Shown here: positions 39,855 through 41,440 of the stretch, piece after piece | Layout of the letters: every line of letters begins with the position of its first letter | How positions within the stretch are numbered: the stretch's first letter is position 1 | Assembly: GCF_054482525.1 (NCBI RefSeq) | Contig: NZ_CM137006.1 | DNA: 64,000 bases | Strand: one strand, 5' to 3' | Notes under the pieces: generated by a model | What the model was told of the DNA's origin: nothing | What the model saw: the letters and a program-made list of their open reading frames with translations, nothing else | Databases searched by the model: none | Program-made: the position numbers and the translations under genes

Positions 39855-39901
39855 TTTCATGCCTACAAAATATGCCCGAATTGTAGGCCGGATAAGGCGT
39901 T
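39855..39901. repeat. REP palindromic unit, left part split by IS insertion
   Basis: gcctacaaaatatgcccgaattgtaggccggataaggcgttt; rejoining with 41335 onward reconstructs gccggataaggcgtttacgccgcatccggc. Confidence 0.7.
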
Positions 39902-39934
39902 TTGAACTGAACCCCAAAACCTGGACAGTTTCAG

Positions 39935-40657
39935 TTAACCGGCTTTTTGATGCTCAGTCCGGTATTCTACCGGACTGAGTCCCCCAAGACTGAGTTTTAT
40001 TCTTTTTTGATTCCAGTAAGTTATGTATTCGTTAACGGCATTTTCCAGCTCTTCTACATTTCTGTAGTCCCGGCGATAGTACATTTCTTCTTTCAGGTGA
40101 CCAAAGAAGTTCTCCATTACCGCATTATCAAGGCAGTTGCCCTTGCGCGACATGCTCTGCACTAACCCTCTGTCCGCCAGGGCGGACTGATAACTTTTTA
40201 TCCGGTAATGCCATCCTTGATCACTGTGGAGCAGCGGTTTCTCCCCTTCAGCAAGGCTTTCCAGCCCCTTATTTAACATCCGCTTCACCAGCTCCTCTGT
40301 AGGCCTGCAGGCCGTTTCCCACGCCACGATTTCCCCGTTAAACAAATCAAGTATCGGGGACAGGTACAGTTTTTGTCCGCCAGCCCTGAATTCGGTGATA
40401 TCTGTCACCCATTTCTCACAGGGAGCTTCCGCTTTGAACTGCCGCTGAAGGATATTTTCTGCAGCGAGTCCCATATTTCCCCGGTAAGACCGGTATTTCT
40501 TCAGGCGCACAGGAGACTTCAGGCCGAGCTGTTGCATCAGTTTTCGCACCGTTTTGCCACTGAACTTAAGACCTCTTTTCTGAAGCTCACAATGGATCCG
40601 CCGGTACCCATAACATCCCCGGTGTTCATGGAAGATGGAGGCTATGAGCTGTTTCAC
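39935..40657 (-). CDS. IS3-family transposase OrfB (DDE integrase domain; Met-started portion)
   Basis: 240-aa ORF with DDE/rve-like sequence (WVTDITEF..., HSDQGWHY..., E in NAVMENFFGHLK); true product probably an OrfAB fusion by -1 frameshift. Confidence 0.8.
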   Translation of the reverse strand: MKQLIASIFHEHRGCYGYRRIHCELQKRGLKFSGKTVRKLMQQLGLKSPVRLKKYRSYRGNMGLAAENILQRQFKAEAPCEKWVTDITEFRAGGQKLYLSPILDLFNGEIVAWETACRPTEELVKRMLNKGLESLAEGEKPLLHSDQGWHYRIKSYQSALADRGLVQSMSRKGNCLDNAVMENFFGHLKEEMYYRRDYRNVEELENAVNEYITYWNQKRIKLSLGGLSPVEYRTEHQKAG

Positions 40658-40761
40658 ATCAGCATACTTGTCCTTAGCCTTCTGCAGTGACAGCTGGTAG
40701 TACAGCGTGCTTCTGGCCAGCCCTGCAGCCTTTAACAGGTCAGACTGGCAGTGTCCGCACC

Positions 40762-41292
40762 TCAGGCTCCGGATGACTTTCGTTTTTTCTCCAGCTCCTG
40801 GCGCTTTTTTTCCAGGAGATGCTCCTGCATGGCTTTCAGATATGCATTTTCTGCGCGAAGATAACGCAGCTCATTCTTCATCTCTTCCGGCGTCATGTTT
40901 GCCTCGTTTTCATGGGTATCATCAGAACGGGTCATGCTTTTCTCCTTCCTGCGCCTGATAAAGGCCTCATTACCAGATTTGCGGTAGCCTTTTATCCAGT
41001 TTTTAACCGTGTTGTGGCTGGGAATGTTAAACCGGGCAGCTACCCGGGGTAGAGACTCAGAATGCCCGAGAGCATAAAGAACCACGCAAAGTTTATCTTC
41101 AGGAGAATAGCTACGCTTGTGTCTGCAATCCAGTGCCCGAGGACCGTGAAGAAGAAAAAGATTAATCCAGTGTGAGAGGCTGGTGTGAGAAAGTTGAAAG
41201 AGTTTTGCCGTAGAAATGATGCCTGCATGACCAGCCAGGTAGTGATTTACAGCGGCAAGTTTTACTTCAAATGAATGTTTCATAAACTGCAC
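40762..41292 (-). CDS. IS3-family transposase OrfA (HTH plus leucine zipper)
   Basis: 176-aa ORF; ends over ggaaaaaaagcg (A7G) frameshift motif near 40805-40815. Confidence 0.8.
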   Translation of the reverse strand: MQFMKHSFEVKLAAVNHYLAGHAGIISTAKLFQLSHTSLSHWINLFLLHGPRALDCRHKRSYSPEDKLCVVLYALGHSESLPRVAARFNIPSHNTVKNWIKGYRKSGNEAFIRRRKEKSMTRSDDTHENEANMTPEEMKNELRYLRAENAYLKAMQEHLLEKKRQELEKKRKSSGA

Positions 41293-41334
41293 CTTCAGAT
41301 GTCAGATTATGTCCAACATTTGGGGTGCAGTTCA

Positions 41335-41440
41335 GTTTACGCCGCATCCGGCGGTTATGCGCTGATGCCTGATGCGGCGCGGGCGCGTCTTATCATGCCT
41401 GGAAGTCTGCGCCCGAATCGTAGGCCGCCTCCGCTATATT
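41335..41440. repeat. REP/BIME cluster, right part
   Basis: gtttacgccgcatccggcg..., gcctgatgcggcgc..., cgaatcgtaggccg: several REP-like units. Confidence 0.65.

Follow-up and report, generated by a model that had tools for sequence, protein, structure and literature searches.

The window, a 64,000-nucleotide stretch of contig NZ_CM137006.1 (assembly GCF_054482525.1), carries a BIME between the convergent 3' ends of ybbJ (ending at position 39836) and a gene for a 120-aa hypothetical protein (41457–41819, minus strand). The first palindromic unit (PU, or REP) of this BIME (39831–39866, plus strand, GCCTGATGCGACGCTGATGCGTCTTTTCATGCCTAC), recognized as a direct repeat, is a degenerate unit of the GCCTGAT type that folds weakly (-5.7 kcal/mol). 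The ybbJ stop codon (39834–39836) lies inside it, so that the gene and the repeat overlap at this point. The third PU (41367–41402, plus strand), found through direct and inverted repeats, is likewise a degenerate GCCTGAT-type unit and folds poorly, and the BIME ends in a truncated linker repeat plus PU tail (41411–41427, GCCCGAATCGTAGGCCG, a direct repeat). Flanked by these two units and in the opposite orientation to them is a PU that has been split by an insertion sequence, which left the first PU intact. A strict regular expression for a full PU matched nowhere in the window, whose units deviate from that pattern. Half-sites in the window numbered 13, in about six clusters, and this count was used for the background estimate only.

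Downstream of the BIME, the region from ybbJ to cueR (41457–59000) is a variable island; of 5426 E. coli genomes, no more than 850 contain it at a coverage of at least 80%. It contains the gene for the 120-aa hypothetical protein, a YadA-like protein (42168–43601), a SiiEA/BapA-related giant adhesin and a type I secretion system. E. coli BH100 has a different gene at the place of this island.

The insertion sequence is a complete copy of 1432 bp (39903–41334) that lies on the minus strand as judged by its transposase. A repeat search found terminal inverted repeats of 25 nt, complementary at 21 positions (84%) and reading TGAACTG...CAGTTCA: a right repeat distal to the transposase (IRR, 39903–39927, TGAACTGAACCCCAAAACCTGGACA) and a left repeat upstream of orfA (IRL, 41310–41334, TGAACTGCACCCCAAATGTTGGACA on the minus strand). 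Imperfect inverted repeats of ~20–40 bp with 5'-TG...CA-3' ends are a trait of the IS3 family, as is a target-site duplication of 3 or 4 bp. The tetranucleotide GTTT stands directly outside both ends of the element (39899–39902 and 41335–41338) and is single in the empty sites of strains 19KM1776 and PCN033. The preliminary description of this locus had reported both the terminal repeats starting with TGAACTG and the 4-bp duplication, as we found them. It had given the element as 39902–41334 (~1433 bp), of which the right end stands, whereas the left end was one base too long.

When the element and one GTTT copy were deleted, the left half (39884–39902, GTAGGCCGGATAAGGCGTTT, an inverted repeat) and the right half (41339–41352, ACGCCGCATCCGGC) of the split PU joined to form GCCGGATAAGGCGTTTACGCCGCATCCGGC, reproducing exactly the REP unit that had been proposed. 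This sequence folds into a hairpin of 7 bp, a 2x2 internal loop, 4 bp and a TTTA loop (-12.2 kcal/mol, z = -3.08), and its reverse complement agrees with the E. coli 'REP31' (Additional file 13, PMC1525189) at 34 of 35 positions. The duplicated GTTT corresponds to the last base of the stem and three bases of the loop. The target thus has the properties of a REP within a BIME, being an imperfect palindrome of ~35 nt that matches the consensus, is extragenic, and belongs to a cluster of units of alternating orientation. It is also the sole well-formed hairpin of the ybbJ BIME, standing between two degenerate units.

On the minus strand of the element, orfA (40762–41283) starts with an ATG at 41283, ends with the stop codon at 40762, and encodes a 173-aa protein with helix-turn-helix domains (HTH_28). 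An A7G run (40804–40811, minus strand) includes the heptamer A AAA AAG (40810–40804), which is in phase with orfA for a predicted -1 frameshift. Judged by sequence phase, the element has the overlapping orfA and orfB and the A AAA AAG-type frameshift site of the IS3 family, and the A7G slippery site named earlier is present. A -1 shift would produce an OrfAB fusion transposase of 449 aa (39935–41283, minus strand) with HTH_28, HTH_21, rve (3.8e-21) and rve_2 domains in Pfam. This reading frame spans 1349 nt, the same as the joined CDS in RefSeq, where identical copies are labelled 'programmed frameshift' and have a two-part CDS with matching relative coordinates. The OrfAB protein scored 387 bits against the IS3 transposase model NF033516 of NCBIfam (cut-off 160), covering profile positions 1–369 of 369. 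Its catalytic residues D295, D355 and E391 show the DD(35)E spacing of IS3-family DDE (rve) transposases. The open reading frames, inverted repeats and frameshift site were all intact in the window copy.

A hairpin was predicted a few bases 3' of the A AAA AAG heptamer, with a fold no better than those of shuffled sequences (z = -0.98). A consensus scan for a sigma-70 promoter of the transposase detected none above its threshold in or near the IRL. By eye, a CATAAT preceded by a poor -35 element (TGAACT) can be seen inside the IRL, which we do not claim as a promoter. Within the last codons of orfB there is a perfect 12-bp inverted repeat with a 3-nt loop (39953–39979, CTCAGTCCGGTA ttc TACCGGACTGAG), followed by a T-run on neither strand.

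The element was 100% identical (1432 of 1432 positions) to many RefSeq E. coli copies annotated as 'IS3-like element IS1397 family transposase'. Among 5426 complete E. coli genomes, 3485 had some match to it and 1707 had a copy with a query coverage of at least 80%; strain K-12 lacks IS1397. The name IS1397 rests on the RefSeq/PGAP annotation of these identical copies together with matching behaviour, and the identification proposed in the preliminary description is supported on the same grounds. The size of 1432 bp also agrees with the published length of IS1397. The OrfB protein was 51% identical to InsK of IS150, 32% to InsF of IS3 and 23% to InsD of IS2. The 173-aa OrfA has the length of IS150 InsJ and is 27% identical to it, and the terminal repeats are similar to those of IS150. 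Within the limits of these three K-12 comparators, the sequence similarities support the IS150-group placement that had been suggested for the element.

IS1397 has reportedly been the subject of studies by Bachellier et al. in 1997, Clement et al. in 1999, and Wilde et al. in 2001 and 2003. We detected no difference between the window element and IS1397 as known: it has the same sequence as the RefSeq IS1397-family copies, the same insertion into PU loops with duplications of 3 or 4 bp, and the same orfA and orfB with A AAA AAG. The ybbJ BIME is a rarely used site; what is new is the place of insertion, whereas the element is of a known kind. IS150 (insJ/insK), from E. coli K-12, resembles the window element in its OrfA of 173 aa, in its A AAA AAG frameshift site and in its inverted repeats (TGTACTGCACCC... 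vs TGAACTGCACCCC...). It differs in its length of 1443 bp and in its proteins, with the identity being 51% for OrfB and only 27% for OrfA. IS150 is not known to be PU-specific.

The REP targeting claimed for IS1397 in the preliminary description has been published. According to PMC1525189, which refers to Clement 1999 and to work by Wilde in 2001 and 2003, the element inserts specifically into REPs, and it is the IS1397 transposase that determines the choice of PUs (Wilde et al. 2003). Its insertion is likewise given as specific to E. coli REPs in PMC3184786. A CFT073 example of IS1397 at a PU is included in Additional file 13 of PMC1525189. Two other IS3-family elements, ISKpn1 of Klebsiella pneumoniae and ISPsy8 of Pseudomonas syringae, are specific for the REPs of their hosts (PMC1525189); they have other hosts and another PU consensus than IS1397, and are likened to it here by description rather than by sequence. 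IS621, of the IS110 family, also uses E. coli REPs as targets (PMC3184786). However, its transposase belongs to an unrelated family (DEDD, not DDE/rve), and it inserts on the 3' side of the REP, outside the palindrome and not in the loop (PMC3184786).

To determine the state of the site before insertion, we searched for its reconstructed empty form of 1005 bp. Five complete E. coli genomes, PCN033 included, had this sequence without interruption at 100% identity, with the junction read in locus L001, and it was covered to at least 80% in 1405 genomes. In strain 19KM1776 (NZ_CP151009.1), the left flank of 17,903 bp corresponded to positions 1617749–1635651 and the right flank of 17,666 bp, counted from the second GTTT, to positions 1635648–1653313, both with 100% identity. 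The two matches overlapped by exactly 4 bp, namely the duplicated GTTT, and thus 35.6 kb were identical with GTTT occurring once. Since the flanks are identical and abut with this 4-bp overlap, 19KM1776 has a true empty site and the insertion in the window is very recent. Comparing the two strains thus shows that the target site was duplicated and that the insertion is recent.

An insertion sequence at the ybbJ locus was found only in ECA64, CB6837 and BH100 (three distinct genomes among the 5426). The site, orientation and GTTT duplication in ECA64 and CB6837 were the same as in the window and the insertion sequence was identical at 1431 of 1432 positions, which could reflect shared ancestry, the copy then being old, inherited vertically and perhaps decayed instead of recently transposed. 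We consider this very unlikely, because the site is empty in 19KM1776 despite the full identity of both flanks, and is also empty in PCN033 and SCU-102, whose left 17.9 kb are 100% identical to the window. Moreover, the ECA64 flanks diverge from the window (98.2% identity overall), including a completely different BIME linker, and the intact open reading frames, inverted repeats and frameshift site argue against a decayed old copy. At the ybbJ locus of BH100 the duplication is a 3-bp TTT and the BIME is differently built, and therefore its copy arose by an independent insertion into the homologous PU.

The linker that differs in ECA64 (locus L002) is the 16-nt segment separating the first PU from the target PU (window 39867–39883; aaactgcactcaaccg vs aaatatgcccgaattg). 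This difference is a BIME linker polymorphism, with the PUs and the junctions of the insertion sequence being identical and the locus otherwise conserved.

Target choice was further compared across other copies of the element. Because RefSeq matches, taken as the best place per record, were dominated by trmL/cysE (six of the eight fetched), metagenome contigs were scanned using the outermost 26 nt of the insertion sequence. The scan gave 52 loci, and all sources pooled gave 46 distinct flanks. A half-PU head (GCCKGAY) was located 13–21 nt from the junction in 42 of the 46, compared to 0.5–0.6% of background positions, whether counted in the window or in these loci. Among 19 distinct complete copies, 13 were in PUs of the GCCGGAT type, five in PUs of the GCCTGAT type and one in a non-PU target; 15 had target-site duplications, of 3 bp in eight copies and of 4 bp in seven. 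When the targets of these 15 were reconstructed, 14 formed PU hairpins whose apical loop contained the junction. The RefSeq copies outside the ybbJ locus, in trmL/cysE, caiE/caiF and yjgA/mpl, were all at the PU centre, with duplications of ATT, CCA and TCA, respectively. The known trait of IS1397, a specificity for the loops of E. coli PUs, was therefore seen in the window copy and in the survey alike. Other copies do sit inside REP units and carry duplications, which were two of the points that the preliminary description had left to be checked.

The two orientations of the element relative to the PU were used about equally, with 21 and 20 distinct sites, respectively. The first five RefSeq-derived sites all had the same orientation, and the idea of orientation-specific insertion drawn from them was rejected by this count from the unbiased metagenome sample.

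These data also bear on the possibility that the window element is a different IS3-family member without REP specificity that reached a REP by chance. E. coli is rich in IS3-family elements and the earlier identification preceded any alignment. However, the element is identical to copies annotated as IS1397 family, while the identity to IS150 InsK and IS3 InsF is only 51% and 32%, respectively. Exact copies of the same end adjoin half-PUs at nearly all distinct sites, far above the background, and the duplications and the position in the PU loop recur at other copies. A chance-landed element is thus highly improbable and effectively refuted.

PU targeting by IS1397 is not absolute. A full-length copy in contig L057 (2893–4324), 99.7% identical, lies in an E. 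coli gene for an RHS core protein with a GGT duplication. Its target is a non-PU sequence with only a weak GC-rich palindrome, representing a natural PU-independent insertion into coding DNA. The flank in L015 was also non-PU, and the insertion in L025 was slightly off centre. In L027 (2865–3147), a 283-bp remnant of the IRR end has a non-PU flank and adjoins psiA, which encodes the plasmid SOS inhibition protein A. It is situated in a mosaic of transposase fragments, and the same arrangement is present with 100% identity in two E. coli chromosomes.

Four complete copies (L030, L038, L039 and L046) had flanks from different PUs and lacked a target duplication; the right flank of L038 was the same as that of L019. 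Such mismatched flanks indicate either that IS1397 copies recombined with each other or that the metagenome assemblies are chimeric. Since insertion sequences and REPs both confuse assemblers and four of the 19 complete metagenomic copies were mismatched, one might ask whether the window copy was misplaced at a REP by the assembler, but this is hardly credible given two clean junctions, the perfect duplication of 4 bp that are single in the empty site, and IS1397 in the same ybbJ PU of independent complete genomes.

Decayed copies were also present within PUs. The copy in L040 (2026–3273) has lost ~174 bp internally (IS positions 914–1087) and that in L026 (524–1950) is 1427 bp long, both with the target duplication intact. 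The number of IS1397 places per genome was 38–40 in E. coli BH100 (NZ_CP024650.2 and NZ_CP025251.1) and 14–25 in several Japanese isolates (JNE and SK0832 strains), with a median of 1 among genomes with any match. The high counts suggest lineage-specific expansion.

We regard it as nearly certain that the window contains a complete and apparently functional IS1397 (IS3 family, IS150 group) that recently transposed into the apical loop of a consensus PU in the ybbJ BIME. Based on what is known of the IS3-family elements IS911, IS2, IS3 and IS150, the OrfAB protein made by the -1 frameshift would act as the transposase and OrfA alone would regulate transposition. The element would probably be copied out and pasted in through a circular double-stranded intermediate. 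The 4-bp GTTT duplication is the mark that staggered joining left at the target. The near-equal use of both orientations, the position at the apex and the use of the sole well-formed hairpin are compatible with recognition of structure by the transposase. We tentatively raise the possibility, doubtful as it still is, that the transposase recognizes the PU as a symmetric, perhaps extruded hairpin or cruciform rather than as an oriented duplex sequence.

REP targeting is usually read as the choice of a safe haven. The ybbJ insertion lies between convergent 3' ends, in repetitive DNA without coding function, and would therefore be close to neutral, with no effect expected on the neighbouring genes. 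The element is already known and is an IS1397 behaving as IS1397 is known to, which makes the finding correct but ordinary. The appropriate label for the region is that of an intact IS1397 within a BIME, and beyond correct annotation the finding has little significance.

The locus nevertheless provides a clean natural example of fresh transposition that can be used as a strain-typing marker, and the sequence comparisons suggest that IS1397 may currently be active in the lineage of the window. The census presented here, comprising 46 sites with both orientations, about equal numbers of 3- and 4-bp duplications and rare non-PU targets such as the RHS gene, updates the genome survey of 2006, which had only two IS1397 copies in the genomes then available. 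If recognition of structure by the transposase proves true, the window strain and 19KM1776 would constitute a natural before-and-after pair for a DDE transposase that reads DNA structure.
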